A DNA stretch of 64,000 bases from Patescibacteria group bacterium (GCA_019428815.1 JAHYJW010000001.1:47119-111118), one strand, 5' to 3'; shown: positions 835 to 55,669, counted from the first letter of the stretch. The notes: generated from the letters alone by a model not told the origin. Made by a program: numbers and translations.

Positions 835-1065
835 ATTATCTCCTCAAAAATTTTTCTTATAACCTCTATAATCTTTCATTTAATATCATCATCAGCTTTG
901 CATAAGGGCATCTAAATTTTTAGGATAAGAAATTGAATATTTTTGAATATAATGAGAAATTTAAGATAATTTTCTAGAACATACAATATACTTACACTTA
1001 TTTTTTATGGGGGAAATATGATTAAAATTTTATTTTTCTTAACACAAAAAATTAAACTGATTTAC

Positions 1066-1638
1066 TCACTTTTTGTAATCTTTTAGAACAGCTTTCACAT
1101 TCTTTAAAAGTTGTTCCATACTGTATTCTAGTTGCTGTTTATTCTTTGTTCCGGTACAAACAAGCTTTCCGTTACTAAATAAGAGAAATGTTGCATTTGG
1201 TTCTATTAACTTATAAACTAATCCTGGAAATTGTTCAGGTTCGTATTCTGTATTCTCCATTTCTAAAGAGAGGAAATTAAGATTTAATTTCAGATTTATC
1301 ATTCCAGAAGCAACAATATTTTGAACTGTTATTTTGGGTTTGGTTGTTATATTTACATTTATTTTTTTTAATTGTTTTATTACTTCTTGTATAACCTTTT
1401 TTACTTGGACTACGGATTTTGTTCCAGTACAGACTAGATTTCCGGAAGAGAAAACTAAAACTGCAGATTTTGGTTCTTTAATTCTTAAAACAAGTCCGGG
1501 AAATGTTTCAGGATTATATTCTGTATTTGGCTGAGTTCTTGCTAATTTTGTTAAAGGAATTGGCTTTTCTAATGAAGTTGTCGCAACAATATTTTGTATT
1601 TTATAGTTACTAGCCTCATTTGAATTTTGGGTTGTCAT
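1066..1638 (-). CDS. tbp: TATA-box binding protein (TBP)
   Basis: Two direct repeats of the TBP fold (IQNIVATT...PExFPGLVLR...SGNLVCTGTKS and VQNIVASG...PEQFPGLVYK...NGKLVCTGTKN). 190 aa is typical for archaeal TBP. Confidence 0.9.
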   Translation of the reverse strand: MTTQNSNEASNYKIQNIVATTSLEKPIPLTKLARTQPNTEYNPETFPGLVLRIKEPKSAVLVFSSGNLVCTGTKSVVQVKKVIQEVIKQLKKINVNITTKPKITVQNIVASGMINLKLNLNFLSLEMENTEYEPEQFPGLVYKLIEPNATFLLFSNGKLVCTGTKNKQQLEYSMEQLLKNVKAVLKDYKK

Positions 1639-1789
1639 TTTTATTAAAAGTATTTTATTTTTTTCAAAACAATAATAATAACAGAAAAAAGTGTTTATAA
1701 AGCTTTATAAAGCCCCTTTAAACCTCTCTTTAGAAAATTATCTCGGAATCTGAGTTTGTTGGATTAATAAAAATTTTAAATTAGAATAT

Positions 1790-2293
1790 TCAACCCATCC
1801 AATTTGAGATACCACTCCCAATTAAGTTGCTTATTATAACTACGATTGCAGTAATAAAAAGATGCTCTCCTATTACCTTTAAAGGATTATCTCCTTTAGA
1901 TACTGCTATTTTATAACTAAGTATGCTTATTAAAGAAAATCCCCAAATTATACTGATTATTAGGGCTAAGTTTAGATTGAAAGATAGAACTGGTATGACA
2001 AAAGTTAAGGCTATCAGTAACTTTGTTATAAAGGAAGAAAAAGTTAATTTCCAAACTTTCTTTTTACTAACACCTTTTTCAGACTCTTTTGAGATGTGAA
2101 TTCCAAGTGAATCAGAAAAAGCATCTGCGAATGCAATAGTTAAAATTCCTCCTAAAACAATCAGTTTGGAATGTGTGCCGTAATAAATTCCTACCATTAA
2201 ACCTAAAGTTGTTATCACCCCGGATGTTAAGCCAAAACTAACTCCAAAGTCTATTTTTTCTTTGATATTTTTCTTCTTGGTTTTTTTATCCAT
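1790..2293 (-). CDS. VIT1/CCC1-family membrane protein (putative iron/manganese transporter)
   Basis: Motifs GVSFGLTSGVITTLGLMVG and AFADAFSDSLG resemble VIT family TM signatures. Multiple TM helices. No rubrerythrin domain present. Confidence 0.45.
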   Translation of the reverse strand: MDKKTKKKNIKEKIDFGVSFGLTSGVITTLGLMVGIYYGTHSKLIVLGGILTIAFADAFSDSLGIHISKESEKGVSKKKVWKLTFSSFITKLLIALTFVIPVLSFNLNLALIISIIWGFSLISILSYKIAVSKGDNPLKVIGEHLFITAIVVIISNLIGSGISNWMG

Positions 2294-4016
2294 ATCTCCA
2301 GTTCCTTTTTTGATTTTGAAAATCTTTTTCTATTTCTTCTAGAGTTGCGACATCTTTAGGTGATCTTTCTGGCCGCAATGAAGTAAATCTTGGAAAACGA
2401 AGAGCAAAACCAGAATTATAATTCGGAGATTTCTGAATTTCTTGATAAGTTACTGAAACTACAACTTTGGGTTTTATTTTTACTTTCTTGTCTTTCTCTT
2501 GTAAAAAATAAGGTTTGAGCTTTTCAGTTAATTCTTCGAAAGATATCCCTATTCCAGTATCTGTTGTAGCCTTTTCTTTTATTCCTGTTCCCATTTTCCC
2601 TATTTCTAAAAATTCTCCTTCTTCATTTTTGCAGGATAAAATAAAACTTGAAAGCCATTCATACCTTTTTCCTTTTCCATATTCTCCTCCAGTGATAACC
2701 AAATCTAAATCTTTTTCTTCTGGCTTAATTTTTAACATATGGCCTACTCTACTCCCAGGTTGGTAATTAGACTCCAAATTCTTGAACATTACTCCCTCTT
2801 GGTTTTCTTTTAAAGCTTTTTTATAAAACTCTTTTGCTTCTTTTTCGTCAGAAGTTAGAATTTGTTTTGCACGAATTATTTGATAAGGTTTATTCTTTAC
2901 AATCTTATCTATAATCTTTGTCCTTTTTTTAAAAGGTTCATCAATTAAAGATTTTCCATCATAATAAAGAACATCAAAAACATTAACCTCTACGGGAAGT
3001 TCTTTTTGTAATCTTTCTATATCATACTTCCTTCTAATTCTTTGACTTATTTCTTGAAATGGGCGGTATTCTTTATTTTTTTTATTAAATCCAACAGCTT
3101 CAGTATCTAAAATAAAAGTGTCACCTTTCACAAAATCTTTTGTATACTCTACAACCTCTGGAAATTGTTTTGTTACGTTTTCTAATTTCCTAGTAAAAAG
3201 TTTTATTTCTTTTCCTTTTTTATGAATTAAAAGTCTAAACCCATCATATTTATACTCAACCATGCAAGGCTTACCTACAGCTTTAAATGCTTCTTCAATA
3301 GTCTTTGCTTTTTGGGCAAGCATTACTTTTATGGGTTTTCCTACCTCTAGTGTTATCTTTTTAAGATTTTTCAAATCCCCTTTTTTTACTGCATCAAATA
3401 CTATTGCGATATCATTTGAATTATCAATTGCACTCTGAATTTCTTTAACAGCTTCTGATTTTTGGTCTAATCCGAAAAAAGAGGCTGCCATTGCGTCTCT
3501 TATTGTATTCTCTTTTATTCCTATTCTTAAATCTGATAAAATAGTTCTGATTAAATACTTAGATTCTAGGGGTGAAGCAGAAGTGAGTAATTCAGTAATC
3601 AATGCAATCTTCTTCGAAACACTGCCTTTACCTTGTAACTCTGGTAATTTTCTTAGATTTTCTAAAACTTTTTTTGTTGTTAAGACACTTTTATTTAAAT
3701 TTAATGTTGACTGTTTTTTCTTTTTGGTTAAAAATTCAGAAACCTCCCCCAAATCTCCAATTTTTTTCCATTCTTGAATAACTACTTTGTTATTTATCCC
3801 AGTTGCTTTTGAAATTGCTTTTATTGCAAGTTGGCTACTTATCCCAATTTTCCTTTCATCGTAATCCGGGTATATTTCCCCTAAAAGCAAATAAATCACT
3901 TCTCTATCTTCCTGATTCAACTCTTTTAAAAAATTAGATAAAATTGAAATTTTTTCAAGTCTTTTTGTTGTATTTGCAGATTTTTCATACATATCTGCGA
4001 GTTTTTGATATTTCAT
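2286..4016 (-). CDS. lig: ATP-dependent DNA ligase
   Basis: Adenylation motif KYDGFR (KxDG). Length 576 aa and overall layout typical of archaeal Lig. Confidence 0.9.
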   Translation of the reverse strand: MKYQKLADMYEKSANTTKRLEKISILSNFLKELNQEDREVIYLLLGEIYPDYDERKIGISSQLAIKAISKATGINNKVVIQEWKKIGDLGEVSEFLTKKKKQSTLNLNKSVLTTKKVLENLRKLPELQGKGSVSKKIALITELLTSASPLESKYLIRTILSDLRIGIKENTIRDAMAASFFGLDQKSEAVKEIQSAIDNSNDIAIVFDAVKKGDLKNLKKITLEVGKPIKVMLAQKAKTIEEAFKAVGKPCMVEYKYDGFRLLIHKKGKEIKLFTRKLENVTKQFPEVVEYTKDFVKGDTFILDTEAVGFNKKNKEYRPFQEISQRIRRKYDIERLQKELPVEVNVFDVLYYDGKSLIDEPFKKRTKIIDKIVKNKPYQIIRAKQILTSDEKEAKEFYKKALKENQEGVMFKNLESNYQPGSRVGHMLKIKPEEKDLDLVITGGEYGKGKRYEWLSSFILSCKNEEGEFLEIGKMGTGIKEKATTDTGIGISFEELTEKLKPYFLQEKDKKVKIKPKVVVSVTYQEIQKSPNYNSGFALRFPRFTSLRPERSPKDVATLEEIEKDFQNQKRNWRYG

Positions 4017-4261
4017 TTTTTCTTTTTAAGATTTAATTTAATCATCTCATATATTATCGTTGTTATGAATGCAGATTTGAGAATTATGAATACTCTTTCT
4101 TTAATTAGGATACTATAAAATAAAATTAATATTCCTCCTAATAATAAAAAGGGGTAGATATAGTTCTTTTTTACGATTTTTCCTTCAGATAATAAAAATG
4201 TTCCGATTATAGTTAAAACTAAACCAAATATTGCTGCAATTTCATATGCCATCTTTTTCAA
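4013..4261 (-). CDS. Small hypothetical membrane protein
   Basis: 82 aa with two predicted TM helices. Start overlaps the ligase gene end by 4 bp. Confidence 0.3.
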   Translation of the reverse strand: MKKMAYEIAAIFGLVLTIIGTFLLSEGKIVKKNYIYPFLLLGGILILFYSILIKERVFIILKSAFITTIIYEMIKLNLKKKK

Positions 4262-4293: not shown

Positions 4294-4866
4294 TCATTTC
4301 CCTAATCTTCCCCTTGCTCTTAAACTTGGTCTTGTCTTTATTTCCCTAGACTTTTTTCTTAAACCCCGAGATTTTTTTGCCGTACTTGTAAGTCCCCTAA
4401 GAGGTCTTTTTTTGTTCTCTGGTTTGGTAATCCAGGAAATTGTTGAATCATTTTTTATTTCTGGTCTTTTAGGATCTACTAGGATTACTTCATAAAAGTA
4501 ATGTATCCCATCTTTTCCGATCATATAAGAATTTAATACCTCGAGATTAGTATATTTTTTAGCAACTCTTTGTTCAGCAATCCATTTGTAATTCATTCTA
4601 AGATTTTTTCTTGTGTGAAGTCTTTTGCCCCTTCTTCCTTTATTGGGTCTAGGTCTTTTGTGACCGCCCCTTTTTAAGCGAATTCTAACAATTACAAATC
4701 CTACTTTGTCTTTATAACCTAAAGTTCGAGCACGGTCGATTCTTAGAGGTTTATCAACTTTTGTAATTGAATCTCCTTTTCTCCACTGAATCATTCTTTC
4801 TCTAAGAATTTTCTTGTCTGGTTTTTTCCATGCTTCTCTTATGTAGTTGTATAATCCTTTAGTCAT
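4294..4866 (-). CDS. rpl15e: 50S ribosomal protein L15e
   Basis: Characteristic RGGHKRPRPNKGRRGKR basic core and KKPDKKILRERMIQWRK N-terminus of L15e. Confidence 0.85.
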   Translation of the reverse strand: MTKGLYNYIREAWKKPDKKILRERMIQWRKGDSITKVDKPLRIDRARTLGYKDKVGFVIVRIRLKRGGHKRPRPNKGRRGKRLHTRKNLRMNYKWIAEQRVAKKYTNLEVLNSYMIGKDGIHYFYEVILVDPKRPEIKNDSTISWITKPENKKRPLRGLTSTAKKSRGLRKKSREIKTRPSLRARGRLGK

Positions 4867-8240: not shown

Positions 8241-9116
8241 CTACAGAAAGATTATCCCCATATATTCTAATTTTTTGAATTCTATCTTCATCATTTTTTT
8301 TAGTTCATTAATTTTCATATTATCGTAAATATCCTTAGTATTAGTTTCAGGTCTTATGTCATAAAAAGAAACATACCCCGGGCTAACAACCCCCCATTTT
8401 GAGTTACCTATAATCCCGGTATTCCTATATACATTCAACAAACTTGTAAAATCTGTAAATGAGGGAATAGCAGGGAAATACCACGTTTTTCCGCGAATTT
8501 CTACTAAATCTTCATAAACTTTTACTAAATCAGATAAACTCACCTTAGAGTCTGCACCCTCATAATCCTCCCGGGAAATTTTATCTGTTTGGGTTACTTG
8601 TTTTGGATCAACATTCTTTTTTAAACTCGGATCTGGGTGAGTATGAAATAATAAAAATGGGCCATAAAATTCCTTTAATCTTACAAACCTAGAGTTGACC
8701 AATGAACATGATGAAATTAAAGCATCTGAATCCTTATGTTGAATTATTTTTTCTCCTATCCCTACCTCAACCCATTTGTTTTCTTTAGGAAAAAAAGCGT
8801 AACTTTCTTCTAAGGCACTCGTTTTTGCAATTTCTTGTAAATCACTAATCCCTCCTTTAAATGATCTATATGAAGTAAGGATTTTTGTTTCATCTGTATT
8901 TAGTTCTAATTTACTTGTGATTTGTATACTACTGCTAGGAAATAAACTATAAATTGGATCTTTTGGTTTAGGACTAGAAGAGTTAATTCCTAAGCTTATC
9001 AACGATGTAAAGACTAAGGGGGATAATTTCTTTATTAATCCTGAAGTTTTTTTCATTACTTTGTAGTGATTATTATCCTTATAAACTTTTTTATTTTTTA
9101 AAAATATTTTTGTCAT
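8241..9116 (-). CDS. Hypothetical secreted protein (downstream of CRISPR trailer)
   Basis: Internal start MKKTSGLIKKLSPLVFTSLISLG gives a signal peptide. No recognised domain. Confidence 0.4.
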   Translation of the reverse strand: MTKIFLKNKKVYKDNNHYKVMKKTSGLIKKLSPLVFTSLISLGINSSSPKPKDPIYSLFPSSSIQITSKLELNTDETKILTSYRSFKGGISDLQEIAKTSALEESYAFFPKENKWVEVGIGEKIIQHKDSDALISSCSLVNSRFVRLKEFYGPFLLFHTHPDPSLKKNVDPKQVTQTDKISREDYEGADSKVSLSDLVKVYEDLVEIRGKTWYFPAIPSFTDFTSLLNVYRNTGIIGNSKWGVVSPGYVSFYDIRPETNTKDIYDNMKINELKKMMKIEFKKLEYMGIIFL

Positions 9117-9323: not shown

Positions 9324-11057
9324 ATCTACAATAGTAGAAATTAAAGCATGCTTCTAGACCTAACAAATGCGCAAAGAGGAAGTAAAATATCTACAATAGT
9401 AGAAATTAAAGCATGCTTCTAGACTTCTCTGTTATCTAATTCTTGTTGTATATCTACAATAGTAGAAATTAAAGCATGCTTCTAGACATTTATACCTTAC
9501 AATTAAAAACCTTGAAAATCTACAATAGTAGAAATTAAAGCATGCTTCTAGACTTAAAATCTGAATACCTTGATAAAGAAGGACAAACAATCTACAATAG
9601 TAGAAATTAAAGCATGCTTCTAGACGACTATAAGAAAATTAAATCATAGGAGGCATCTACAATAGTAGAAATTAAAGCATGCTTCTAGACACGATAATGT
9701 CATCATTACCTGTTAAGGAATCTACAATAGTAGAAATTAAAGCATGCTTCTAGACACACCAACACCACCAAACACCACCACTTATCTACAATAGTAGAAA
9801 TTAAAGCATGCTTCTAGACTACAACCTTAAATAATATTTTTAAATTTTATTTATCTACAATAGTAGAAATTAAAGCATGCTTCTAGACACCTTAATGGAC
9901 GATGCCATCGAATGCGTATCTACAATAGTAGAAATTAAAGCATGCTTCTAGACAGGAATACTAATCCAGCTCCAACGATTAATCTACAATAGTAGAAATT
10001 AAAGCATGCTTCTAGACACTGGGGGGGTTTCCATTACATAAACCTATCTACAATAGTAGAAATTAAAGCATGCTTCTAGACCGAAAAAAGAGGTTTTCTT
10101 TTGAGTGGTGAATCTACAATAGTAGAAATTAAAGCATGCTTCTAGACAGTTATTCTCTTATTCGCTGGGGTGATGTATCTACAATAGTAGAAATTAAAGC
10201 ATGCTTCTAGACACTGCTCGAGGTGTTAGGTGTAAGTGGATCTACAATAGTAGAAATTAAAGCATGCTTCTAGACGCCCCTGAAAATACTCTCCAAACTG
10301 ATGTATCTACAATAGTAGAAATTAAAGCATGCTTCTAGACTTGGGCCAATCTTGCTTGCTCATATTCTGTATCTACAATAGTAGAAATTAAAGCATGCTT
10401 CTAGACTAACCCCTGAAATGATTGAATATCAGAAAGGATCTACAATAGTAGAAATTAAAGCATGCTTCTAGACATAATCCGTCTTCACAGGAATTATTAA
10501 ATCTACAATAGTAGAAATTAAAGCATGCTTCTAGACACCACAGATTCAACAGCTTACGGATTGCTATCTACAATAGTAGAAATTAAAGCATGCTTCTAGA
10601 CTTATAAACTTATAATATTATAATATTATAATATCTACAATAGTAGAAATTAAAGCATGCTTCTAGACAAGTTTATTGGGTGTCCAGTCCTAACTCTATC
10701 TACAATAGTAGAAATTAAAGCATGCTTCTAGACTCCAGATTTGAAGCCTGGGCTTTCAACTTATCTACAATAGTAGAAATTAAAGCATGCTTCTAGACAA
10801 GTTGGCTTTTCCATTATATCCCAATTGGATCTACAATAGTAGAAATTAAAGCATGCTTCTAGACACCTTAATGGACGATGCAATCGAATGTGTATCTACA
10901 ATAGTAGAAATTAAAGCATGCTTCTAGACATTTTTCCATACGCTTTTATATATCCCGATCTACAATAGTAGAAATTAAAGCATGCTTCTAGACTTTTTCC
11001 CGTATGCCTTTATATACCCTGATCTACAATAGTAGAAATTAAAGCATGCTTCTAGAC
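9324..11057 (-). CRISPR. Type V-A CRISPR array: 27 identical 36-bp repeats, 26 spacers (27-36 bp)
   Basis: The repeat ATCTACAATAGTAGAAATTAAAGCATGCTTCTAGAC is counted 27 times with starts at 9324, 9389, 9452 ... 11022. In minus-strand sense it reads GTCTAGAAGCATGCTTTAATTTCTACTATTGTAGAT, the canonical Cas12a repeat with a 3-prime AAUUUCUACUAUUGUAGAU handle. Spacers 9/24 and 25/26 are near-duplicates. Confidence 0.95.
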
Positions 11058-11266
11058 AGTTGCGATTTGGAGTAGACTTTTTGTTTTGCTTTATCTCCTC
11101 TAACTTAAGTCATTTTAGACTTTTACCTCTAAAACTCATTTCCAGTATATATAATTATTCTTGTATTCTTAAATATTCCTAAATTGGCATTTAGAGACGC
11201 TAAGAACCAAAAATTCTTAGATATTGGCCATACTTACATAAAATATTAAGACTTGGGTTTGCAGAT
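11058..11266 (-). promoter_or_regulatory. Putative CRISPR leader with AT-rich TATA-like elements; hairpin downstream of cas2
   Basis: About 209 bp AT-rich region between the cas2 stop and the first (leader-proximal) repeat. Contains TATATATAATTAT (about 11148-11160) and an inverted repeat CTAAGAA-ccaaaaa-TTCTTAG at 11200-11220. Confidence 0.45.
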
Positions 11267-11539
11267 TTAATACATAAGAAGGTCAGTTTCTTCATTTTTA
11301 GCGTAACCAAACCTTAAAATTTGATTCTCTGCTGTTATTTTAAATATTAAAACACTGTCCCCCTGATTAAATCGTTTCTCAAACCGATTCTTAATCTCTT
11401 CCTGCACCAAATCTAGGATCCTTTTGCTGTTCTTTATTTCATACACCGAGTATTGAAGTCTTCTCCCATAATTTAAAATAAACTTGGAAAACTCAGTTCT
11501 TAGATGGTCTTCTTGGATATCATACGTTAAAATTATCAT
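11267..11539 (-). CDS. cas2: CRISPR-associated endoribonuclease Cas2
   Basis: 90 aa. N-terminus MIILTYDIQEDHLRTEFSKFILNYGRRLQYSVYE matches the Cas2 beta1-alpha1 pattern. Overlaps cas1 by 4 bp. Consistent with the cas12a-cas4-cas1-cas2 operon order. Confidence 0.75.
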   Translation of the reverse strand: MIILTYDIQEDHLRTEFSKFILNYGRRLQYSVYEIKNSKRILDLVQEEIKNRFEKRFNQGDSVLIFKITAENQILRFGYAKNEETDLLMY

Positions 11540-12510
11540 CTATTTACCTCTAGGTCAAAGACAGGAAAACTGTCAGTTTCTTTTCCCTTTATGAACGATC
11601 TGTAATAAGATTGAATATATAAAAATATTTTTTCTTTATATAACAGGATCTCTTTTAAAAACAATTTAGAGTATTTTTTATTAAACTCTCTCTTTACATA
11701 AAATTGTCCATTTTTAAAATAAAAATCATCTTTATTTATCTGTTTAAGGTTAAAACTTTTCTTTATGCGGCGGTCAATAATGCACCTAAAAGGTTCCACT
11801 AAATCACAGACTAATGATTTTCTTTGAAAGAACAGCTTATGGTAAAAGCCACAATAGGTGTCAAAGCCGTAAAGTTCCAAATTTGCCTCTATGAAATTAA
11901 ACAAGTAATAATATCCAATATCTAAGAGCAAATTAAAGCTATCGCTCTTACATCTTGGCTTTCGGCCACCAAAATCTAAATTCTTAAAATAGGTTTTAAA
12001 AAATAATTTTGAGGCTGTTCCTTCCATCCCTAACAAATCCTGGCTGCTTTGAGCATTGTCGATTTGTTTAAAAATCTCTTTTGTTTTTGATATATTGTTC
12101 TTTTCCTTAGTGGTTTTGTATCGTAATGAGTCCATTAAACTGATCTGATTTTTAACTTTATTATGGACTATGTGCTTAGCAATTTTTAGATCATTGCTAT
12201 TAGTGTATTGTTTTTTCCTCAAAAAAAAATTTCCTTTATTATCTGGGAGGATGGAAAAATAAGGTTTAAGATTATAATTAAGAAACACTATAGGAACTGC
12301 ATATTTTTTTGCATTCTTTATCAGAACGGAAGTAATTGAGAATTCTCCTAAAATAAAAACCATAAAAATTTTTGTGAACGGATGCTGGAGAATGATCTTG
12401 TTATTTTCATCAACAAGAATAAGGTTTGAATTTTTAAGCCTCAGTTTTTTAGAGTTATTACTTTCAATGAAAAGCATTTGCTTGGCTATAAAATCAGGTC
12501 TACTTAACAT
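11536..12510 (-). CDS. cas1: CRISPR-associated integrase Cas1
   Basis: 324 aa. Position between cas4 and cas2. Conserved acidic/His-containing C-terminal half (LLDIGYYYLFNFIEANLELYGFDTYCGFYHK). Confidence 0.8.
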   Translation of the reverse strand: MLSRPDFIAKQMLFIESNNSKKLRLKNSNLILVDENNKIILQHPFTKIFMVFILGEFSITSVLIKNAKKYAVPIVFLNYNLKPYFSILPDNKGNFFLRKKQYTNSNDLKIAKHIVHNKVKNQISLMDSLRYKTTKEKNNISKTKEIFKQIDNAQSSQDLLGMEGTASKLFFKTYFKNLDFGGRKPRCKSDSFNLLLDIGYYYLFNFIEANLELYGFDTYCGFYHKLFFQRKSLVCDLVEPFRCIIDRRIKKSFNLKQINKDDFYFKNGQFYVKREFNKKYSKLFLKEILLYKEKIFLYIQSYYRSFIKGKETDSFPVFDLEVNR

Positions 12511-12513
12511 GTT

Positions 12514-13077
12514 TTAATCTCCTTTATCTTTATAATAATCGCACAATTCTTTATAGATACACATCTCGCATTTGTGGGGATTTTGAGTGAAGTTTTTGTC
12601 TTCTAATGAAAATAGTTTAATTTTTGTTATAATTTCTTTCAATTTATGTTTTTCATTGTTTCCAGGCAATCCAACATCATGGATTTTGTTGTCTGAAAGC
12701 GAATGAAAACGTATTTTTTTGACAACATAACCCATCTCTACCAAACAAAAATATTGCGCATAAATTTGTAGGTAATACCCCTCATAAAGCTTTTTTATAT
12801 TATTTTTTCTTTCTGTAAGAATTCCCCTTTCAACATCAAAAAGATCAATTTTTCCGCACACACTTAACTCTTCACTGTATATGTCAATTCCTTCAAGAAT
12901 CGCCTTTTTTGTTGAATATTTTTGTCTATCTACGGTTTTGTGTGCGTGTTTTCCCTTTGTCTGATAAATGGTATGGTAAAGCGTCTCATCAAAAGATGAA
13001 TATAAATTATGAAAGTATATGCTTCTTGGGCAGAAGATAAAGTCATTAAGGTTTGAGATAATTATATTTTGTTCCAT
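12514..13077 (-). CDS. cas4: CRISPR-associated Cas4 (RecB-like nuclease with Fe-S cluster)
   Basis: N-terminal Cys (FCPRSIYF) plus C-terminal CEMCIYKELC cluster. RecB-like motifs (IDLFD...ERK, QIYAQYF). Confidence 0.8.
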   Translation of the reverse strand: MEQNIIISNLNDFIFCPRSIYFHNLYSSFDETLYHTIYQTKGKHAHKTVDRQKYSTKKAILEGIDIYSEELSVCGKIDLFDVERGILTERKNNIKKLYEGYYLQIYAQYFCLVEMGYVVKKIRFHSLSDNKIHDVGLPGNNEKHKLKEIITKIKLFSLEDKNFTQNPHKCEMCIYKELCDYYKDKGD

Positions 13078-16000
13078 TGTCCTATACCCCCTTGTACAAA
13101 TTTAAGCCATTCTTTATTGCTGATGGACAGTTTAAGACTTTTCCAATTTTCTTTGTGGGAACTGATTTGTTTAAGTACCCATAAACCTTTTTTAGCAATA
13201 TGGTATGCCCCATTGGCATCGGCGTCTTGAGGTAGCTCTTTACCGGCGTTTCTGCTATCGTAAAATTCTCCTTTTTTGTTCATCACAGGCGAAATGAGAT
13301 AATCAACCTCACTTTGTATCTTGCTATTTCGCATTTGTACAGTATACTTGAAAAGATCAAGAAGCCTTTCAAAGAAGATCTTCTCTGTTTGTGAAACGAT
13401 CTGTTTTTTCAAATCAGTTTTATAATCCACCTTGTACGATTGAAATAGATTCTTAAACTCTTCAGAAAGAACTATCTCTTTGTTGTCCCACTGATTGTTT
13501 TTTTCTGGATTTCTGAATGTTTTGATACGTTCACCATATGTGCAGAGGGTCCAATCCTGTCTTGTACCACTTGCTTTGGAGTTGAACGTAGAATATTCTT
13601 TAACTTCGAATTCAAAATAGTTTTTAGTAGTGTTGTAACGGATGTCTTCAAAATTATCAAAAAAAGACCTTGCTTTTTCGAGATTTTCATATTTGATTTT
13701 GAATAGATTGACAAATCCAGTGGTGGGATCTATCTTGCTAGTATACCATGAGGGAACATAGAACAAAAAGCCGCTTTGCTTTCCTAGTTTTTGGAAGCTT
13801 ACGAATTTGTTGGTTAGTTGTAAAGCGTTATATAATCCACCTATTTCATTTTCGGCTTTGTCTTTGAATACTAAATAATTGAGCTTGTCTATCAATTTTT
13901 TCTCTAGTTTTTGATAGATTTGCTTTTCAACCTTGAAACGACCTCTTTTGAAGCCAAAATTCAGATCTTCCATGACGACAATAGCATTGTGTTTTACCAT
14001 CATCTGATTAATTTTATGTATTACCTGTGAGATATACCCCTCTTTTAGTTCTTTGATTGCTTCTATTGTTTCCCAGTTTTCCCTTGCTTTGGCTCTTTCA
14101 TCTTCTCTTTTGTCAAGTAAATCCCTGTATTTGGTCCGGTAAGTATTTCCTTTATGCTCATTGATGATATCGTTAAAAGAATACTGTTCTTCGATATTGC
14201 CTTTTTGGTCAATCAGCGTTAAATAGATCAAATTTCTCTCCCCTCTGTCTAAACCAATAATCTTGACTTTAGGGTTATTCTTGAGGTATTCGAGAACAGA
14301 AGCATTGATAGATCCGTTACCCTTTGCCTTAAAGTTAAGTGTTATTGGAACGTGGAACTGGAATTTGTCCACAGTATAACGTTTGTTTTTTATAATATTA
14401 TATTCAAAAATACTTTCCTTCTTAGTGGCACTTGGATTTTTATTTTTAATAGACTCTTTTGCTTTGTGAACAACTTTATTCTCATTGGAGATGGAGCTTC
14501 TCCGATAGAACATCTCAGCTTGACCATTAAGTTTATACACCTTATTTTTCAGATTCTCCGGTTTAAATAAAGCTTTCCAGTACATTGTATGCAAGTTGGG
14601 ATTGCCTTTACTGTATTTAGAAAAGTCTTTATTCCAAATTTTAAACAGAAATAACTTCCCTTCGTCTACGAGTCGATTGATGTAGCTTTCGGGAACATTT
14701 TGAAAAGTGATTTTATACCCCTGATGTTCTACTTCTCTATAAAATTCACTCAAGTCTTCGTATGAGGAAGTATCTGAAAATTGAAATCCAAAATGTCTCC
14801 AATCTTCATGCTTTGCGATAGATTTTTTGAAAAAATCAATCAAATTGTGGCAATCCTCAACGTTAAATTTGTCACCTTTTTTATGAGTTTCTGCTTTATA
14901 TTTCTTTTTTAATTCTTCAGGCGGTGCAAATTCTTTGATTCTGCTATTTGAGAAAAATACTTTTGGCAACATCTTATTTGCACCAGGTAGTAGTTTGTAT
15001 ACCATTTTTTCATAAACCAATTCACCTGGGCTTGCATCAGGGATATTTTTGAAAATCTTGTTGTGTTTTTTGTCCATTACTCCAAGATAATACAACCCCT
15101 TTTTGTGAAATAATACTGAAGTATTATCAACCTCTTTATTCAAATCCCAGCCAGCCAACAGTGTACTATTCTCAAAATTTAGTTTGAACTTCTCTGTACA
15201 ATACGGCTTTTGTGTAGCATAATTTCGTACCTTATTGTATAGGGGAATTAAAAGCCGCAATTGGTCATACCATATCTGAAACTGACCATAGAACATCTCA
15301 TCCTTCTCTAAGGGGCTATCGTTTGGTAATGATAGGGGTTTCACAAAATGCAGTAGTTCCATCATGCTATCTAAAAAAGTCTTGATATTATCAATGACTT
15401 TTTTATCCTGATTCAGTTTTTTATCCTTTGGATACTCTATGTTTAAGATGTCTTTGATAGAGAGGTACTTTGTTTCAATATTGGTAATCAAATCAAATCC
15501 TTTGTTGCCGTCTTTTTTCTTTTCAACCTTAAAATGAGTATGAAAATAATTGGTAACAGGTTTCGTGTCTTCTTGTAAATCCTTTAGTATTTCAACTTCA
15601 CTTTTGTATTTGAGTAAGGCACTTTCAATTTCAGCAATAGAAAAATGAGACTGTTTCAGTTGCTTTTCTTTAGCAATCTTTTGTTTTATGGATAACCCTC
15701 TTTTGCCAATTTTAGGCGTTTTCAAAAAGGTAAATTCCAATGCAGATTTTATGATATTCCAATCACCAAAAATGTTTTTTGAAATGTCACTAAGTGTCCG
15801 GTCATTACTGATATAAACTTTTTCAAGATTATAGTCTTTGAGGCTTGCAAGTAGCTCTTTGATTTTTTTCAGCACATTCTCAGTCTCGTCCTTATCGTTG
15901 GGATGAAAGTCAACCAGGTTATTCTGGTAATATTCACCTATTGCGTTTAGGACTTTCTGACTAGCTGTTTTCTCCGGATCATCTTTAAACGATTCTGGTA

Positions 16001-16922
16001 AGAATGAAATGCTCTCCCTATCACTCAGGATTTGCTTATAGAGTTTTTTGAGTTTTGGTATTCTATCTTTCTTGTCCTTTTTTTGGTTGTACAAATTGAT
16101 ATATTCATTCAATCCCTGAATTTTCTTTTGATCTTCTTCAATAGTTCTCCCACTAATAATTAAATTGTAAACAACTATCTGTTTTTGAGTGAGCACCCTA
16201 TTGTAATAATCCAACTTAAAGGCTTCATCAATGTTTTTAATGTTAAGATATTCCCCTATTTCTTTGTATAGAACAACACACTTCCCATATAACTCCGGTA
16301 TTGATTTAATCTTTTCAAAAATTTTGATGTTATCCATGAACTTTGGTAAATTTTCGTGTATCAATCGATAGGAAATCGCGGTGGCCTGTTTTTTTTCGGT
16401 GTACATATTTTTTCGGTTCTCGTGGAAGCCTCTGAAATATGTTGTGAATGTTTTGAATTTATCATCGAAGTAAATGTCTTTCTTATTATGCCTGCTTATC
16501 CAATCTGGTAGGAGCTCAGTTATTAATTCCTTTTTGTCAATTTTTGAGAAACTTTCCTCTGCTTTACCAGTCTTAAAACCTTCGGCGATCTCTTTTCTAA
16601 GGTAAGCTTGTACCTTCTCAAATTCTTTCTTGAAAACATCTTCCTTTTTACGTTCTGGAGATACATTGTATAGTTCTGCAAATGCTTTTAATTTTGTTAA
16701 TTTTACTTGTGACATAGTTTCTTCTATGAAGTCCCTATGTAAACTATCAATGGTTTTTTTCATCTTCTTATAGCTTTCCGCTTTTTTTTCATCTTGGCTT
16801 ATTAATCCCTTTTTTTCGATATTTTCAAGAGTCTTCCCAACTGGCTTCAATTCAAATCTTAAGGTTTTTGATAAGCTGTATTTATTTGTAAATTCGCTTT
16901 GTATTGACTCTGTTTTTGTCAT
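13062..16922 (-). CDS. cas12a: Cas12a (Cpf1) type V-A effector nuclease
   Basis: N-terminal FTNKYSLSKTLRFELKPVGKTLENI (WED-I). RuvC-I IGLDRGERNLIYLTLID, RuvC-II VVMEDLNFGFKRGR, RuvC-III DADANGAYHIAKKGLW. 1286 aa. Confidence 0.95.
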   Translation of the reverse strand: MTKTESIQSEFTNKYSLSKTLRFELKPVGKTLENIEKKGLISQDEKKAESYKKMKKTIDSLHRDFIEETMSQVKLTKLKAFAELYNVSPERKKEDVFKKEFEKVQAYLRKEIAEGFKTGKAEESFSKIDKKELITELLPDWISRHNKKDIYFDDKFKTFTTYFRGFHENRKNMYTEKKQATAISYRLIHENLPKFMDNIKIFEKIKSIPELYGKCVVLYKEIGEYLNIKNIDEAFKLDYYNRVLTQKQIVVYNLIISGRTIEEDQKKIQGLNEYINLYNQKKDKKDRIPKLKKLYKQILSDRESISFLPESFKDDPEKTASQKVLNAIGEYYQNNLVDFHPNDKDETENVLKKIKELLASLKDYNLEKVYISNDRTLSDISKNIFGDWNIIKSALEFTFLKTPKIGKRGLSIKQKIAKEKQLKQSHFSIAEIESALLKYKSEVEILKDLQEDTKPVTNYFHTHFKVEKKKDGNKGFDLITNIETKYLSIKDILNIEYPKDKKLNQDKKVIDNIKTFLDSMMELLHFVKPLSLPNDSPLEKDEMFYGQFQIWYDQLRLLIPLYNKVRNYATQKPYCTEKFKLNFENSTLLAGWDLNKEVDNTSVLFHKKGLYYLGVMDKKHNKIFKNIPDASPGELVYEKMVYKLLPGANKMLPKVFFSNSRIKEFAPPEELKKKYKAETHKKGDKFNVEDCHNLIDFFKKSIAKHEDWRHFGFQFSDTSSYEDLSEFYREVEHQGYKITFQNVPESYINRLVDEGKLFLFKIWNKDFSKYSKGNPNLHTMYWKALFKPENLKNKVYKLNGQAEMFYRRSSISNENKVVHKAKESIKNKNPSATKKESIFEYNIIKNKRYTVDKFQFHVPITLNFKAKGNGSINASVLEYLKNNPKVKIIGLDRGERNLIYLTLIDQKGNIEEQYSFNDIINEHKGNTYRTKYRDLLDKREDERAKARENWETIEAIKELKEGYISQVIHKINQMMVKHNAIVVMEDLNFGFKRGRFKVEKQIYQKLEKKLIDKLNYLVFKDKAENEIGGLYNALQLTNKFVSFQKLGKQSGFLFYVPSWYTSKIDPTTGFVNLFKIKYENLEKARSFFDNFEDIRYNTTKNYFEFEVKEYSTFNSKASGTRQDWTLCTYGERIKTFRNPEKNNQWDNKEIVLSEEFKNLFQSYKVDYKTDLKKQIVSQTEKIFFERLLDLFKYTVQMRNSKIQSEVDYLISPVMNKKGEFYDSRNAGKELPQDADANGAYHIAKKGLWVLKQISSHKENWKSLKLSISNKEWLKFVQGGIGQWNKI

Positions 16923-17044: not shown

Positions 17045-17115
17045 TGCACCAGCCGGGAATCGAACCCGGATGTCAAGCTTGGGAAGCTTGCATTTTACCA
17101 TTAAACCACTAGTGC
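17045..17115 (-). tRNA. tRNA-Gly (anticodon CCC)
   Basis: Reverse complement GCACTAGTGGTTTAATGGTAAAATGCAAGCTTCCCAAGCTTGACATCCGGGTTCGATTCCCGGCTGGTGCA. 7-bp acceptor, anticodon stem CAAGC/GCTTG with loop UUCCCAA, T-arm CCGGG-TTCGATT-CCCGG. Confidence 0.8.
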
Positions 17116-17178: not shown

Positions 17179-18297
17179 TTGATAAATTTTTATATACTTC
17201 AAAAAGTTTTAGTTTTTATGATAAGAACAGATTTTAAGAGAGCTAATTTAAGGGAAATTCTTGAATTACAAGGAATTGATTGTCCTAGAAGATTAGACAA
17301 ATCTTTTTTTTCTTCTCTTATAGAAGAGGGAAAATTGCTTTTTGTTGGAGACTCTTATGAAAATGCGGTAAAATCAATTAATAATTTAAAAGAAGGTTCT
17401 GTTGCATTATTCCCCAATAAATTTAGATTTGATAAAGAAAAAGCAGATCGTGAGGTAAAATCCTTAGAAGGATTAGTTAAAATAGACTCTGCTCCTGTTT
17501 TAAGGAAAGTTTCTGGACAAGACTCTGTTCCTCATAAGCTCACTAAATCTTTCCTAGAAGAATACCAAATTCTTCCAGAGGCATTAATCCAAGAAGCAGT
17601 TAATCGAAGCAAGATTGAAAATCCTCCTAGGGGCATTTATTGGATTGGAAGAGATAATCACGTTAGGGCATTTACTTGGTTAAGGGCTATTTCTGGGATC
17701 GAAATGCAAATAATGAATCAACTTGGTAAGTTTTTTGGCGAAGTTAAAGATAAGAAACCTTATGGTAGAAATATTAGAGTTGGGGTTGGATCTAGAGAAA
17801 AACCAAATCTGGAATATGAATTTAGTTTATTTAGACTACCTATCTTTTCTTATGGTGATAAAAGAAAATTCTCAGAGTGGACTGAAATAAGCCATAATTC
17901 TAATGATCCAGATGCGAGTTATAGGGGCGGAGAACATGATAAGAGAGTTTTTCCTTTTTATTTTTGGTCTGCTCCTTCTATTTTTGCATATTATAATTCA
18001 ATGTCTTTTGTTAGTAATATGGGAGGTAATATCCCGGATGATCGTCGTTTAAAGTTTAGGGTTAATCCCTTTCCAATTCCAAAAGATAAGAGAGTAGTTG
18101 ATTTTATCGATAGATTAAGATTTCAAAGTTTGATTATAGACTCACCCCAAGAAGATGCCAAAAAATTAAAACTTTCTATATTGAGTAATACTGAGATAGA
18201 AGAGCTTATCGGAACAAAATTAATTTTAGAAGGTTATGATAACTTTTTTTATCATTTAGGGAAAAAGAATTTGGATTATCTCTATAATCTTAAATAA
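17179..18297 (+). CDS. Hypothetical protein (372 aa), no recognised domain
   Basis: Long ORF with typical codon usage. No motifs I can assign. Probable real start is the internal MIRTDFKR. Confidence 0.4.
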   Translation: MINFYILQKVLVFMIRTDFKRANLREILELQGIDCPRRLDKSFFSSLIEEGKLLFVGDSYENAVKSINNLKEGSVALFPNKFRFDKEKADREVKSLEGLVKIDSAPVLRKVSGQDSVPHKLTKSFLEEYQILPEALIQEAVNRSKIENPPRGIYWIGRDNHVRAFTWLRAISGIEMQIMNQLGKFFGEVKDKKPYGRNIRVGVGSREKPNLEYEFSLFRLPIFSYGDKRKFSEWTEISHNSNDPDASYRGGEHDKRVFPFYFWSAPSIFAYYNSMSFVSNMGGNIPDDRRLKFRVNPFPIPKDKRVVDFIDRLRFQSLIIDSPQEDAKKLKLSILSNTEIEELIGTKLILEGYDNFFYHLGKKNLDYLYNLK

Positions 18298-19224: not shown

Positions 19225-19611
19225 TTACCTAATCAAACTTCCTTCTTGAATATCTTCATCTGGTTGTAAAAGACAGACCTTTGTTTCTTTTTCTTTATTA
19301 TTAAATAAATTTTCATCTGTTGCTGCAAGCAACATACCTTGACTTTCAACTCCTCTGATTTTTCTTTTTTCTAAGTTTGTAAATACAATACATCTCTTAT
19401 CTTTAAGTTGTTCAAGAGAATAATAGGGTTTAAGTCCTGCAACTAAAGTTCTTTCCCCTAATTCTTTACCTAAATTTACAATAATTTTGTAAAGTTTATC
19501 TGCTCCTTCAACATTTTCTACTTTGACAATTCTTCCAACTCTCAAATTAATCTTTTGCCAGTCAGAAAATTTAACTGTTTCAATATTTTCAATATTTTCA
19601 ATATGCTCCAT
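19225..19611 (-). CDS. Stand-alone tRNA-binding domain protein (Trbp111/CsaA/MetRS C-terminal-like)
   Basis: Motifs DWQKINLRVGRIVKVENVEGADKLYK...GMLLAA typical of the OB-fold EMAP-like tRNA-binding domain. Confidence 0.7.
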   Translation of the reverse strand: MEHIENIENIETVKFSDWQKINLRVGRIVKVENVEGADKLYKIIVNLGKELGERTLVAGLKPYYSLEQLKDKRCIVFTNLEKRKIRGVESQGMLLAATDENLFNNKEKETKVCLLQPDEDIQEGSLIR

Positions 19612-21544: not shown

Positions 21545-21883
21545 TTAACTTAGTTTTAAAATTGCTTCTGCTAAATCTCCGTTTGTTTCTTCTAATGCCT
21601 TTTTTGCATCTTCTTCTTTAGAGCTAGTTTTTTCCATAACAGTTTTGATATCTTCTTCAGAAATCGTATTTTCAGTCACTTCTTTTATTGTTCCTGAAAT
21701 TTGGAAATTTTCTTGGCCTTGCATGGAAATTTTAGTTACAGAAGGGTTTTCAATGATGATTTTTGTGTCATCTTCTTTTTCAATAATTACTCTTAAAGCA
21801 GAAATCTCTTCCTGGTTTATGCCTAGCTGTTTCATCATAGCCTGCATTTTTTTGGGATTTAAACCCCCTAATCCTGGAAGCAT
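21545..21883 (-). CDS. nac: Nascent polypeptide-associated complex protein (NAC alpha homolog)
   Basis: NAC domain IENPSVTKISMQGQENFQISG plus C-terminal UBA-like EEDAKKALEETNGDLAEAILKL. Confidence 0.8.
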   Translation of the reverse strand: MLPGLGGLNPKKMQAMMKQLGINQEEISALRVIIEKEDDTKIIIENPSVTKISMQGQENFQISGTIKEVTENTISEEDIKTVMEKTSSKEEDAKKALEETNGDLAEAILKLS

Positions 21884-24617: not shown

Positions 24618-25709
24618 ATGGCAAAAATTAGTAAATTAGAATTATCTGAAATTATTGAAGAACTTGAAGAATATAAAGGGCGAGCTACAGAATTAGTAAC
24701 GGTCTATATACCTGAAGGTCAAAATATTTACACTGTTAGTGATCAACTTGAGGCTGAAAAATCTACTGCAAAAAATATTAAGTCTACAACAACTAGGAAA
24801 AATGTTGGAAATGCTTTGGATAAAATCACTCGTCAATTGAAAGAATATAAAAAAACTCCTGAAAATGGATTAGCAATTTTTTGTGGAAATATATCCCAAA
24901 TAGAAGGCCAAGAAGATTTAAGAATTTGGGATGTTGAACCCCCCTTGCCTTTAAATACAAGGATGTATAGATGCGATAAAGAATTTATTCTCGATCCCTT
25001 AAAAGAAATGTTAGAAGTTTCTGAAGTTTTTGGACTTTTGGTTATGGATAGAAAAGAAGCAACAATGGGTCTTTTGAAAGGAAAAAATATTGAAGTTCTT
25101 CAAAAAATGACTTCGGGAATCCCTAGTAAGATTCGTGCAGGAGGCCAGTCAAGTCAGCGTTTTCATAGGATTACCGAAGGATTAACTAAAGAATTTTATA
25201 AAAGAATTGCAGATGAGATGAAGAATCTTTTCTTTAATATGCCTAAATTAAAAGGAATCCTTGTTGGAGGGCCGATTCCTACAAAAGATGAATTTTTAGA
25301 TGGAGATTACCTTTTGACACCTTTAAGAGTGAAAGTGATTGGCAAATTAGATCTGGGAGATAGTTCTGAATCCGGATTAGGAGAGCTTGTAGAGAAAGCA
25401 CAAGATATATTATCTGACCATGAAAGAACCCTTGAAAAAAAAGAAGTCGAACGTCTTTTTCAAAGTTTAGGTAAAGATCCTGAAAAAACAGTTTTAGGAG
25501 AAGAAAAAGTTAAGCGAGCACTTGAATTAGGTTCTGTTGATACGCTTTTTTTGTCAGAAAAAGTTCCAAAATCAAAAATAAAAGAATTAACTAAAATAGC
25601 TGAAGATATGAGTTCTGATATAAGACTAATCTCTACAGAGATTACTGAGGGAGAACAATTCTTTAATATTGGAGGAATTGGGGCGATTTTAAGATTCAAG
25701 ATATCTTAA
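24618..25709 (+). CDS. prf1: Peptide chain release factor aRF1
   Basis: NIKS motif (AKNIKSTTTRKNV) and GGQ motif (IRAGGQSSQRF). Confidence 0.85.
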   Translation: MAKISKLELSEIIEELEEYKGRATELVTVYIPEGQNIYTVSDQLEAEKSTAKNIKSTTTRKNVGNALDKITRQLKEYKKTPENGLAIFCGNISQIEGQEDLRIWDVEPPLPLNTRMYRCDKEFILDPLKEMLEVSEVFGLLVMDRKEATMGLLKGKNIEVLQKMTSGIPSKIRAGGQSSQRFHRITEGLTKEFYKRIADEMKNLFFNMPKLKGILVGGPIPTKDEFLDGDYLLTPLRVKVIGKLDLGDSSESGLGELVEKAQDILSDHERTLEKKEVERLFQSLGKDPEKTVLGEEKVKRALELGSVDTLFLSEKVPKSKIKELTKIAEDMSSDIRLISTEITEGEQFFNIGGIGAILRFKIS

Positions 25710-30000: not shown

Positions 30001-30300
30001 TTGGTAGCAATGGTAAAAACAATTCAATTAGGATTAAGGATAGATAAAAACCTAAATAAAGAAATAGAGTACTTGGCGGAATCAGAAGGAGTAAACAAAA
30101 TGGCGTGGATAAGAAGAGCTTTAGCAGATTTTGTAGATCAAGAAAAGAATGTTATAACAAAAGAATTGGTAAAAGGTTATATTAATCTTATCAATACGGA
30201 AAAAGACTTAAAGGAATTTACCGGATGGAATAAAATGCCTGAAGATATAAGCCAAGCAAGAAGAGAGAACATAAATAGCATAAAAAGAACTAAAGAATGA
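30001..30300 (+). CDS. Putative ribbon-helix-helix (CopG/Arc-like) DNA-binding protein
   Basis: IQLGLRIDKNLNKEIEYLAESEGVNKMAWIRRALADFV fits an RHH strand-helix-helix. Stop overlaps the start of the downstream gene (ATGA). Confidence 0.35.
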   Translation: MVAMVKTIQLGLRIDKNLNKEIEYLAESEGVNKMAWIRRALADFVDQEKNVITKELVKGYINLINTEKDLKEFTGWNKMPEDISQARRENINSIKRTKE

Positions 30301-34486: not shown

Positions 34487-35707
34487 ATGAAAGAAGATAT
34501 TCGTTTTGAGGTCATAAAGAAAATAGCAGAAATAAATTTTAAGTATAAGAATTTAGACAAACTTTCTGAATTAGACACTAATTCCCCTCCAAGTGTTTTT
34601 ATAGGCTCTAAGTTAAAGTACCCATTAGTTAACGTAGGTATACTTAGTCCTTTAGAAAGAGATGATGATGCATGGGTTTATGATTCTCCTGATTATTGGG
34701 CAAAAAGAAATTTTAAAATAAAAGAGGTTGTTAGTCTAAGAGATGGTCTTCTTAATTCTAGGTTCCAGACAAATGTAAAGGCAAGTCTTTCTTCTTCAAA
34801 TGGTAATCAAAAATTTGTTCAGATAGCTCAAGAATTGGCAACAGCATTAAAACCTGTTGATGTGGAGATAGAATTGGAGAAGAAAATCGGCCCAGGTTTA
34901 AAGAAAGACAGGGTTTTAGCTCCTCAAGGAATGGCCGCACCATTAAAAAAGGCAAAAATTACCAGTAATGTAAAAATTCATAAAAAATTAGATAGAGTTA
35001 TGAATGATGAAATAAAAGCTTCAGAAGGTATGTTTGAATTATATAAAAGTAAGTTTGATGAGTATACTTTAAGTAAAATCTTAAGTGTCGGGGTTTTGGG
35101 GCTTAAAAAAAATAAAAAACTGGTTCCTACAAGATGGTCGATTACTGCTACAGATGATGCTCTTGGAAAAAGACTCTTAGAAAAAATTAGGGGATATAAA
35201 TGGATTGAAAATTATGAATTATTCTTTGGAGAATTTATGGGAAATGCTTACCTAATTTTTCTATTTCCTAATGTTTGGAGTTATGAACTTTTTGAACTTT
35301 ACTTACCTGGAAGTTCTTGGAATTCTTCTAATGAGATAAAGGCAGCTACTGATTTTGAACAATTTTCTGGCAGAAAGGATTATGCATCAGATACTGCAGG
35401 AGGGTATTATGCATCAAGGTTACCTATTTTAGAGTATCTTGAAAGAATAAAGAGACAAGCTTCTGTTTTAGCAATAAGAATTGAACTTCCTAGTTATTGG
35501 GCTTCTTTGGGTGTTTGGGTTGTTAGGGAGTCAGTTCGTAAAGCTCTTAATCACCGGAAACTTGAATTTTCAGAAAGGAATGAATTATTAAAGAGTGCCG
35601 CAAAAATTGGGATAATAAAATTTGGATTTAATCCTGAAACAGTCTTTAAAAAAAGTAAACTTATTGAAAGCTTAAAGACACAAACTAGGTTAAAAGATTG
35701 GCTTTAG
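34487..35707 (+). CDS. Conserved hypothetical protein (406 aa)
   Basis: No motif assignable by eye. Confidence 0.35.
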   Translation: MKEDIRFEVIKKIAEINFKYKNLDKLSELDTNSPPSVFIGSKLKYPLVNVGILSPLERDDDAWVYDSPDYWAKRNFKIKEVVSLRDGLLNSRFQTNVKASLSSSNGNQKFVQIAQELATALKPVDVEIELEKKIGPGLKKDRVLAPQGMAAPLKKAKITSNVKIHKKLDRVMNDEIKASEGMFELYKSKFDEYTLSKILSVGVLGLKKNKKLVPTRWSITATDDALGKRLLEKIRGYKWIENYELFFGEFMGNAYLIFLFPNVWSYELFELYLPGSSWNSSNEIKAATDFEQFSGRKDYASDTAGGYYASRLPILEYLERIKRQASVLAIRIELPSYWASLGVWVVRESVRKALNHRKLEFSERNELLKSAAKIGIIKFGFNPETVFKKSKLIESLKTQTRLKDWL

Positions 35708-55594: not shown

Positions 55595-55669
55595 TTTATT
55601 TTTTAATAAATTTTATTCCCCCTTTTATAAACAAAAATTCTACATCCTAAATTTGGTTATTATATTTTT

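Follow-up and report, generated by a model that had tools for sequence, protein, structure and literature searches.

Cas12a (Cpf1) is the effector of type V-A CRISPR-Cas systems; members of this family are 1200-1500 amino acids (aa) long and are associated with repeats of 36 nucleotides (nt) and a TTTV protospacer-adjacent motif (PAM) (PMC6507119). The characterised bacterial enzymes, which include FnCas12a, LbCas12a and AsCas12a (PDB 5ng6, 5xus and 5b43) and the protein of 6iv6, share with the reconstructed ancestor ReChb (8qwd) a set of REC1, REC2, WED, PI, RuvC and Nuc domains, while the characterised bacterial loci have the 36-nt repeat and the order cas12a-cas4-cas1-cas2-array. The same domains, the same catalytic, RNase and PAM-contact motifs, the same repeat and the same order recur in a locus within the 64,000-nucleotide stretch of DNA analysed here (the window), which belongs to a public contig of 181,602 bp. 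The window Cas12a differs from the characterised bacterial enzymes in its archaeal host and in its identity of at most ~60% to any structure, and it is known from sequence alone.

Class 1 dominates the CRISPR repertoires of archaea; the class 2 cases that the 2025 classification mentions for them are a small number dispersed over Methanobacteriota and Thermoproteota, together with type II-D, which it describes as common in DPANN archaea (PMC12669027). Types II-D (Cas9d) and V-F (Cas12f/Cas14) resemble the window locus in being class 2 systems of DPANN archaea, but differ from it in their effectors and RNA requirements. Type II-D needs a trans-activating CRISPR RNA (tracrRNA), whereas V-A is tracrRNA-independent and self-processing. 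An archaeal Cas12a, that of Candidatus (Ca.) Methanoplasma termitum (CMtCpf1), was reportedly characterised in 2015. CMtCpf1 is one of the eight first orthologs with demonstrated cleavage and PAM (PMC6507119); it is likewise an archaeal type V-A effector, but its host is a gut methanogen of the Thermoplasmatota, not a DPANN archaeon, and it was found neither among the 120 best Cas12a matches listed nor among the 25 loci retrieved. In the literature searched, no paper discussing Cas12a in DPANN archaea was found, and the phrase 'archaeal Cas12a' was absent too; judging by title and abstract, the listed papers that mention both Cas12a and DPANN deal with different subjects.

The nearest relatives of the window protein are database entries, several of which are labelled as DPANN archaea: MBN1896511.1, from a metagenome-assembled genome (MAG) of Ca. 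Aenigmarchaeota (80% identity); MFW5852504.1, from a Nanoarchaeota MAG (72%, as for a protein on an unlabelled contig); and, at 66%, a protein of Ca. Woesearchaeota CG10_big_fil_rev_8_21_14_0_10_37_12 (PCYA01000003.1). The labelled relatives share with the window a clade of 100% support, an identical or near-identical repeat, a conserved leader and the same cas4-cas1-cas2 module. The exact effector protein is itself public (GenBank MBW6442211.1), where it was annotated automatically as Cas12a. An earlier description made from the window alone (the sequence-only reading) had presented the locus as a rare archaeal example; this novelty was overrated, because the protein is deposited as Cas12a, DPANN-labelled relatives are public and CMtCpf1 has been functionally tested (PMC6507119). 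The locus is an uncharacterised member of the known type V-A, neither a new variant nor compact, and V-A was already known in Archaea. What is new here is a 13-sequence clade with archaeal contexts, the foreign composition of the cassette, and a near-identical cassette in a ~53%-GC contig labelled 'Aenigmatarchaeota'. The best explanation of the locus is that it very probably provides functional, canonical type V-A adaptive immunity, encoded in a DPANN chromosome by a horizontally acquired cassette.

A complete type V-A locus

The four cas genes, a leader and a CRISPR array form one co-oriented unit on the minus strand, at 9324-16922 (Table 1). Their packing is operon-like: cas12a and cas4 share 16 nt, cas1 and cas2 share 4 nt, and cas4 is separated from cas1 by 3 nt. 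Cas4 has four cysteines towards its termini, at positions 16, 170, 173 and 179. The repeat, GTCTAGAAGCATGCTTTAATTTCTACTATTGTAGAT, is present in 27 exact copies, and the spacers between them are all different and 27-36 nt long, mostly 28-30 nt. At the 3' end of the repeat a fold of UCUAC-UAUU-GUAGA, followed by U, is predicted, giving the canonical handle AAUUUCUACUAUUGUAGAU. Among the V-A arrays fetched, 15 others, bacterial as well as archaeal, carry exactly the same 19-nt handle, AATTTCTACTATTGTAGAT. The handle of FnCas12a differs from it by one loop base. The sequence-only reading was therefore accurate in describing a complete V-A locus at these coordinates, with 27 identical repeats, a canonical 3' handle and an array whose orientation agrees with that of the cas operon.

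No copy of the repeat or of an anti-repeat was found outside the array on either strand of the 64 kb with up to 6 mismatches, so the window holds no tracrRNA candidate and no second array. A TATA-like element, AATAATTATATATA, lies in the leader ~90 nt upstream of repeat 1 and is a putative promoter.

Table 1. Features of the CRISPR-Cas locus and of its surroundings in the window.
Feature	Coordinates	Strand	Description	Matches
CRISPR array	9324-11057	-	27 repeats x 36 nt and 26 spacers; same transcription direction as cas operon	
CRISPR leader	11058-11266	-	209 nt, AT-rich, between cas2 and first repeat	
cas2	11267-11539	-	90 aa	TIGR01573, 39.2 bits (cut-off 24.5); Pfam CRISPR_Cas2
cas1	11536-12510	-	324 aa, type V integrase subfamily	TIGR04329 cas1_PREFRAN, 381.8 bits (cut-off 300); Pfam Cas_Cas1
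cas4	12514-13077	-	187 aa, type V subfamily	TIGR04328 cas4_PREFRAN, 226.2 bits (cut-off 70); Pfam Cas_Cas4
cas12a (cpf1)	13062-16922	-	1286 aa, sole effector	TIGR04330, Pfam, PADLOC, PDB
tRNA-Gly(CCC)	17045-17115	-	122 nt upstream of cas12a; flank, not part of the system	ARAGORN; Rfam, 67 bits
TBP	1066-1638			
ATP-dependent DNA ligase	2286-4016			
L15e	4294-4866			
NAC	21545-21883			
aRF1	24618-25709			TIGR03676, 420.8 bits
Nre	34487-35707			
TFS	40059-40367			
Cdc48	41805-44144			
PolB	47350-49815			
FEN1	50534-51577			
RFC large and small subunits	54392-56632			
Class I LysRS	59145-60740			

The Cas12a effector

The effector matches the cas_Cpf1 equivalog model TIGR04330 at 1533.8 bits (cut-off 300), over positions 2-1285 of 1288, and the PADLOC Cas12a model at 1649.7 bits. 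Its Pfam domains are REC1, REC2, PI, RuvC_1 and NUC, and HNH was not among the matches. It aligns end to end with the Cas12a chains of the PDB, best with 8qwd (1559 bits, 60% identity), followed by 6iv6, which we take to be MbCas12a (1099 bits), and the Fn (~1015-1016 bits), Lb (~975 bits) and As (~645 bits) enzymes. Together with the tree described below, these matches group the protein with Cas12a, as the sequence-only reading had expected of it, and the locus has the sequence features of type V-A in its effector domains, catalytic and processing residues, repeat and adaptation genes.

In an alignment of 81 homologues, the residues of the RuvC triad, D892 (GLDRGER), E985 (VVMEDLN) and D1235 (DADANGAY), are invariant, as is R1198 of the Nuc domain (VQMRNS); the RuvC motifs are thus intact, as had been claimed. 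The crRNA-processing residues H819, K828 and K845 are conserved in 79-80 of the 81 sequences (crRNA, CRISPR RNA). The equivalents in FnCas12a are D917, E1006, D1255 and R1218 for RuvC and Nuc, and H843, K852 and K869 for processing. Two motifs that contact the PAM, GWDLNKE in WED and YKLLPGANKMLPKVFFS in PI, match the family consensus in the same alignment. The effector had also been called compact, which it is not, because the median length of 68 relatives outside its clade is 1276 aa; with 1286 aa it is of average size, inside the family range, and members of its own clade span 1282-1327 aa. From its sequence, no unusual properties are predicted for the effector.

We infer the steps of the mechanism, from transcription through crRNA processing and PAM recognition to cleavage, from homology. 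Transcription of the array would start from the leader and proceed in the direction of cas12a-cas4-cas1-cas2. Cas12a is predicted to process the precursor transcript itself through the His/Lys/Lys site of its WED domain, where H819, K828 and K845 would cut upstream of the 3' hairpin of each repeat, yielding crRNAs that would consist of the handle AAUUUCUACUAUUGUAGAU followed by a spacer and would not need a tracrRNA. The crRNA-Cas12a complex would then find a T-rich 5' PAM by means of two conserved lysine motifs, GWDLNKE in WED and GANKMLPKVFFS in PI, form an R-loop, and cut both strands with the single RuvC site (D892, E985, D1235) and R1198 of Nuc; the predicted outcome is crRNA-guided, staggered cleavage of double-stranded DNA. 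New spacers would be inserted at the leader end by Cas4-Cas1-Cas2.

An archaeal host and a bacterial label

The cassette has archaeal information-processing genes within 5 kb in either direction, L15e on the left and NAC on the right, and the GC content is 28-36% in every 2-kb interval of the 64 kb. Of the neighbours that the sequence-only reading had called archaeal, TBP, aRF1, NAC, TFS, RFC, PolB, FEN1 and L15e were confirmed. On the question of host taxonomy, which it had left to markers on the same contig, L15e, class I LysRS and the information-processing genes all point to an archaeon. The named best matches of PolB are MAGs of Nanoarchaeota, Ca. Pacearchaeota and Ca. Nanoarchaeia, at 66-70% identity. 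Because its PolB is nearest to such MAGs, the host, with ~30% GC, is taken to be a DPANN archaeon that resembles the Nanoarchaeota sensu lato (Pacearchaeota/Woesearchaeota-like); the lineage is assigned from this one marker together with depositor labels.

GenBank labels both the Cas12a and the PolB of this contig 'Patescibacteria group bacterium', a bacterial clade, and the gene content of the contig contradicts this label. Were the label correct, the locus would be bacterial, from Patescibacteria of the candidate phyla radiation (CPR), or else the contig would be a chimera joining a bacterial CRISPR cassette to archaeal DNA. Cas12a is indeed known from CPR bacteria (PMC6509639), and the cas genes differ from their neighbours in GC content at third codon positions (GC3). 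Against this, genes specific to Archaea flank the cassette and span all 64 kb, the overall GC content of the cassette (29-33%) equals that of its flanks, and the nearest Cas12a relatives are also found in archaeal contexts. The PolB that bears the same label is a family-B polymerase whose named best matches are nearly all archaeal MAGs; being archaeal yet labelled as bacterial, it indicates that the label is wrong for the entire contig and not for the cassette alone. A chimera would, moreover, take two precise joins in short intergenic spacers beside a tRNA gene. A bacterial or chimeric segment, the outcome that the sequence-only reading had set against its own account, is thus extremely unlikely, and an archaeal chromosome is preferred. 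Correcting the label is worthwhile, as the wrong taxonomy conceals the archaeal origin from database surveys. Another archaeal-type PolB among the PolB matches (P0228) is also labelled 'Patescibacteria group bacterium'.

Phylogeny of the effector

More than 4,500 Cas12a homologues were present in the database at E <= 1e-50, of which the 120 best were listed. Beyond the nearest relatives given above, matches at 68% identity or less include proteins of Balneolaceae, Bacteroidota and 'Deltaproteobacteria'. When 81 sequences were placed in a neighbour-joining tree (100 bootstraps), the window protein fell among Cas12a, as had been anticipated, in a clade of 13 leaves that was recovered in 100 of 100 bootstraps. 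Archaeal hallmark genes accompany several of its members: the window itself, P0003 (with PolD DP1/DP2) and P0008 (with aEF-1alpha followed by S10), while the contig of P0011 carries an archaeal LonB (TIGR00764, 832.8 bits). Others (P0002, P0004/P0122 and L005) are archaeal by label, as Aenigmatarchaeota, Nanoarchaeota and Woesearchaeota. P0006, a nearest outgroup of the clade, has bacterial neighbours, namely ClpS, ClpA and Aat. No insertions or deletions specific to the DPANN Cas12a clade were found in the 81-sequence alignment. In the explanation preferred here, the lineage branches next to bacterial enzymes of Balneolaceae/Bacteroidota type and circulates among DPANN archaea.

Origin and mobility of the cassette

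The cas genes stand out from the rest of the window in GC3, which is 0.341 in cas2, 0.305 in cas1, 0.282 in cas4 and 0.354 in cas12a, compared to a mean of 0.213 (standard deviation 0.030) in the other 53 open reading frames (ORFs). These values correspond to z = 2.3-4.7 while total GC is similar, and they delimit a sharp island of the size of the cassette. The ORFs that adjoin it are host-like (8241-9116, z = 1.0; 17179-18297, z = -0.6), and since GC3 returns to host values just outside cas2-cas12a, the foreign segment is the CRISPR-Cas cassette alone.

A near-identical cassette is found at the end of JAFGFG010000005.1 (L001, 1-15966), a contig of a MAG labelled 'Aenigmatarchaeota'. Amino-acid identities between the two are 79.6% for Cas12a, 89.4% for Cas4, 89.8% for Cas1 and 95.6% for Cas2, the 36-nt repeat is the same and the leader can be aligned. 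The genes that flank the L001 cassette have 52-55% GC (GC3 0.62-0.71), whereas its cas genes have 29-36% GC; the hosts would thus differ at ~30% GC for the window and ~53% for the L001 flanks. The presence of a near-identical cassette in the ~53%-GC contig indicates that the cassette is horizontally mobile. L032 and L033 carry this exact repeat too, next to Cas12a proteins that share only 66-67% identity with that of the window, and the leaders of the window, L001, L004, L032 and L033 have conserved blocks in common. From these features, the leader, array and cas genes look to have been acquired horizontally as one cassette. Directly upstream of the L001 cas12a there is a low-GC HEPN/nucleotidyltransferase pair.

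In the window the cassette lies directly downstream of tRNA-Gly(CCC), a possible insertion landmark. This position, the distinct composition of the cassette and its evident mobility between genomes, along with the Bro-N genes found in relatives, which are typical of mobile elements, would all fit a cassette that is part of an integrated mobile element or virus and serves that element, in competition with other elements, rather than the host. No att-like repeat of tRNA-Gly was found, however, and the flanking ORFs gave no integrase, phage or defence matches; the flanks lack an integrase, a duplication of the tRNA 3' end and any phage or plasmid hallmark, and GC3 is host-like immediately outside cas2-cas12a. 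Service to an integrated element is therefore very unlikely, and a mobile cassette that now serves its archaeal host is the preferred reading.

Spacers, adaptation and signs of activity

Two pairs of spacers resemble each other. Aligned without a shift in register, spacers 3 (10865-10893) and 18 (9889-9917) agree at 27 of 29 positions, compared to a maximum of 17-22 in shuffled sets. They differ at positions 3 and 12, both divisible by 3, and neither difference alters the peptide TLMDDAIEC read from the reverse strand. Spacers 1 (10994-11021) and 2 (10930-10957) agree, again in the same register, at 21 of 28 positions; six of their seven differences are transitions that fall at positions 2 mod 3, and none of these six changes an amino acid in the frame GYIKAYGK. 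The pairs would be explained if one PAM-anchored protospacer had in each case been sampled more than once, from diverged variants of the coding genes of invaders, which would suggest that the adaptation module works and that an arms race is under way.

Could the cassette instead be a recent arrival that is intact but not, or not yet, functional, whether because it is poorly transcribed or because its array was inherited ready-made from a donor? Its GC3 has not been ameliorated; all 27 repeats including the terminal one are identical, as young arrays typically are; other hosts share its repeat and leader; and no spacer target was found in any collection scanned. On the other side, the two spacers visible in L001 are absent from the window array, so the arrays are not simple copies. 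Spacers 3 and 18 are far apart in the array, as expected of re-acquisition over time, while spacers 1 and 2 lie at the leader end; all ORFs are intact with every catalytic residue kept; and conservation of the leader in at least five archaeal-clade loci speaks for its working in them. A silent cassette is thus unlikely, and a functional system that acquires spacers in its present host is favoured.

None of the 26 spacers has a target in the 64 kb of the window itself, and none matches any relative locus that was fetched. In IMG/VR, the patterns searched were those of the variant pairs 3/18 and 1/2 (wobble-degenerate or purine/pyrimidine (R/Y)-coded) and exact 23-24-nt cores of spacers 4, 5, 6 and 8; the exact cores, the R/Y-coded pattern and one of the two wobble-degenerate scans gave no match. 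The single match came from the other wobble-degenerate scan and falls within a recA/uvsX-like gene, in the frame that had been predicted, on a 310-kb uncultivated virus genome (UViG). It was set aside as uninformative, since by our own estimate ~0.5 chance matches are expected, the PAM side reads TTCT and the contig is not rich in AT. A metagenome match, in two copies of one 51%-GC sequence, was rejected as chance: it covers 22 of 29 positions, made up of 20 fixed bases plus chance wobble, and has no T-rich PAM. The whole array compared by blastn with 50,697 phage records (INPHARED) gave only low-complexity matches at E >= 0.04. As these searches brought no protospacer, we infer the PAM from the conserved PI and WED motifs only; it is probably T-rich and TTTV-like. 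The sequence-only reading had expected the spacers to reveal a 5' TTTV PAM: the motifs that contact the PAM follow the family consensus, and no protospacer was found in which TTTV could be read.

Several points weigh against the account given here. In the 13-leaf clade, P0005, P0010, P0012 and P0014 have an uninformative gene context, L005 is counted as archaeal only through its Woesearchaeota label, and the contig of P0012 (L030, 268 kb), a protein that adjoins L005 in the tree, has a divergent SecA-like gene (1011-4121, minus strand, 1036 aa; 374 bits against a cut-off of ~800), which is unexpected in an archaeon. Together these observations mean that the clade may not be exclusively archaeal. 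The deeper nodes that tie it to particular bacteria are weak (bootstrap 18-19), and the donor lineage is therefore not nameable. L001, where the cassette sits at the contig end, could have been mis-assembled instead of coming from a true GC-rich host. The likeness of spacers 1 and 2 is near the top of the shuffle null, in which 22 identical positions were reached in 1 of 30 sets. None of the spacers tried led to a true protospacer, so that neither targets nor PAM are demonstrated, and the TATA-like element of the leader is a reading of the sequence only. A scan for sigma-70 promoters and terminators was not used, its counts being those expected from shuffled sequence and the bacterial model being irrelevant for archaea.

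Cas12a3 in related loci and wider implications

In several relatives that belong to the clade or lie next to it, cas12a and cas4 are separated by an extra Cas12a3 gene, in some cases accompanied by Bro-N, whereas the window has neither. A large extra gene in this position was observed at 13897-17424 in L031, 13946-17534 in L002 (and likewise in L003), 4481-7929 in L037 and 13843-17358 in L036. Those of L031 and L002 match Cas12a3 (PDB 9hlx, Ba1Cas12a3) at 1233 and 1073 bits respectively; the gene is split in L002/L003 (238+918 aa) and in L037 (136+1009 aa). Cas12a3 is an RNA-triggered nuclease that cleaves tRNA tails and has been described as a bacterial system (PMC12851939). On their contigs L031 also has an archaeal LonB and L002 an archaeal PolD, which suggests that Cas12a3 may exist in Archaea.

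It can be suggested, tentatively and with somewhat more doubt than confidence, that the window Cas12a lineage is essentially restricted to DPANN archaea, that it travels as a self-contained cassette across phyla (~30% versus ~53% GC), that its ancestry lies in a bacterial V-A system with Cas12a3, and that the window represents a streamlined, Cas12a-only form. If so, some archaeal members would have kept Cas12a3, and an effector that cleaves tRNA tails would operate in Archaea too. The main interest of the locus is evolutionary and lies in the DPANN clade, in mobility across hosts of differing GC content and in the mislabelled record. For DPANN archaea, which are reduced and episymbiotic, a well-supported Cas12a clade would mean one more class 2 type, their second or third, and the mobile cassette with its conserved leader points to the movement of an entire immune module between domains and between phyla. 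On the practical side, a natural Cas12a ortholog at ~60% identity to the nearest structure, from a host of cold/AT-rich type, is a candidate for PAM and temperature screening.

Other features of the window

Among the housekeeping genes of the window, an ORF of 544 aa (30297-31931, plus strand) has a C-terminal HNH_3 endonuclease domain and HNH matches in PHROG, and may be a homing endonuclease or the remnant of a mobile element. Away from the CRISPR locus, a 128-aa ORF (19225-19611, minus strand) matches phrog_8598, a phage family of unknown function, at E = 9e-13, and a 436-aa HerA/FtsK-like ATPase (52978-54288, minus strand) matches the PADLOC HerA and mad8 models.

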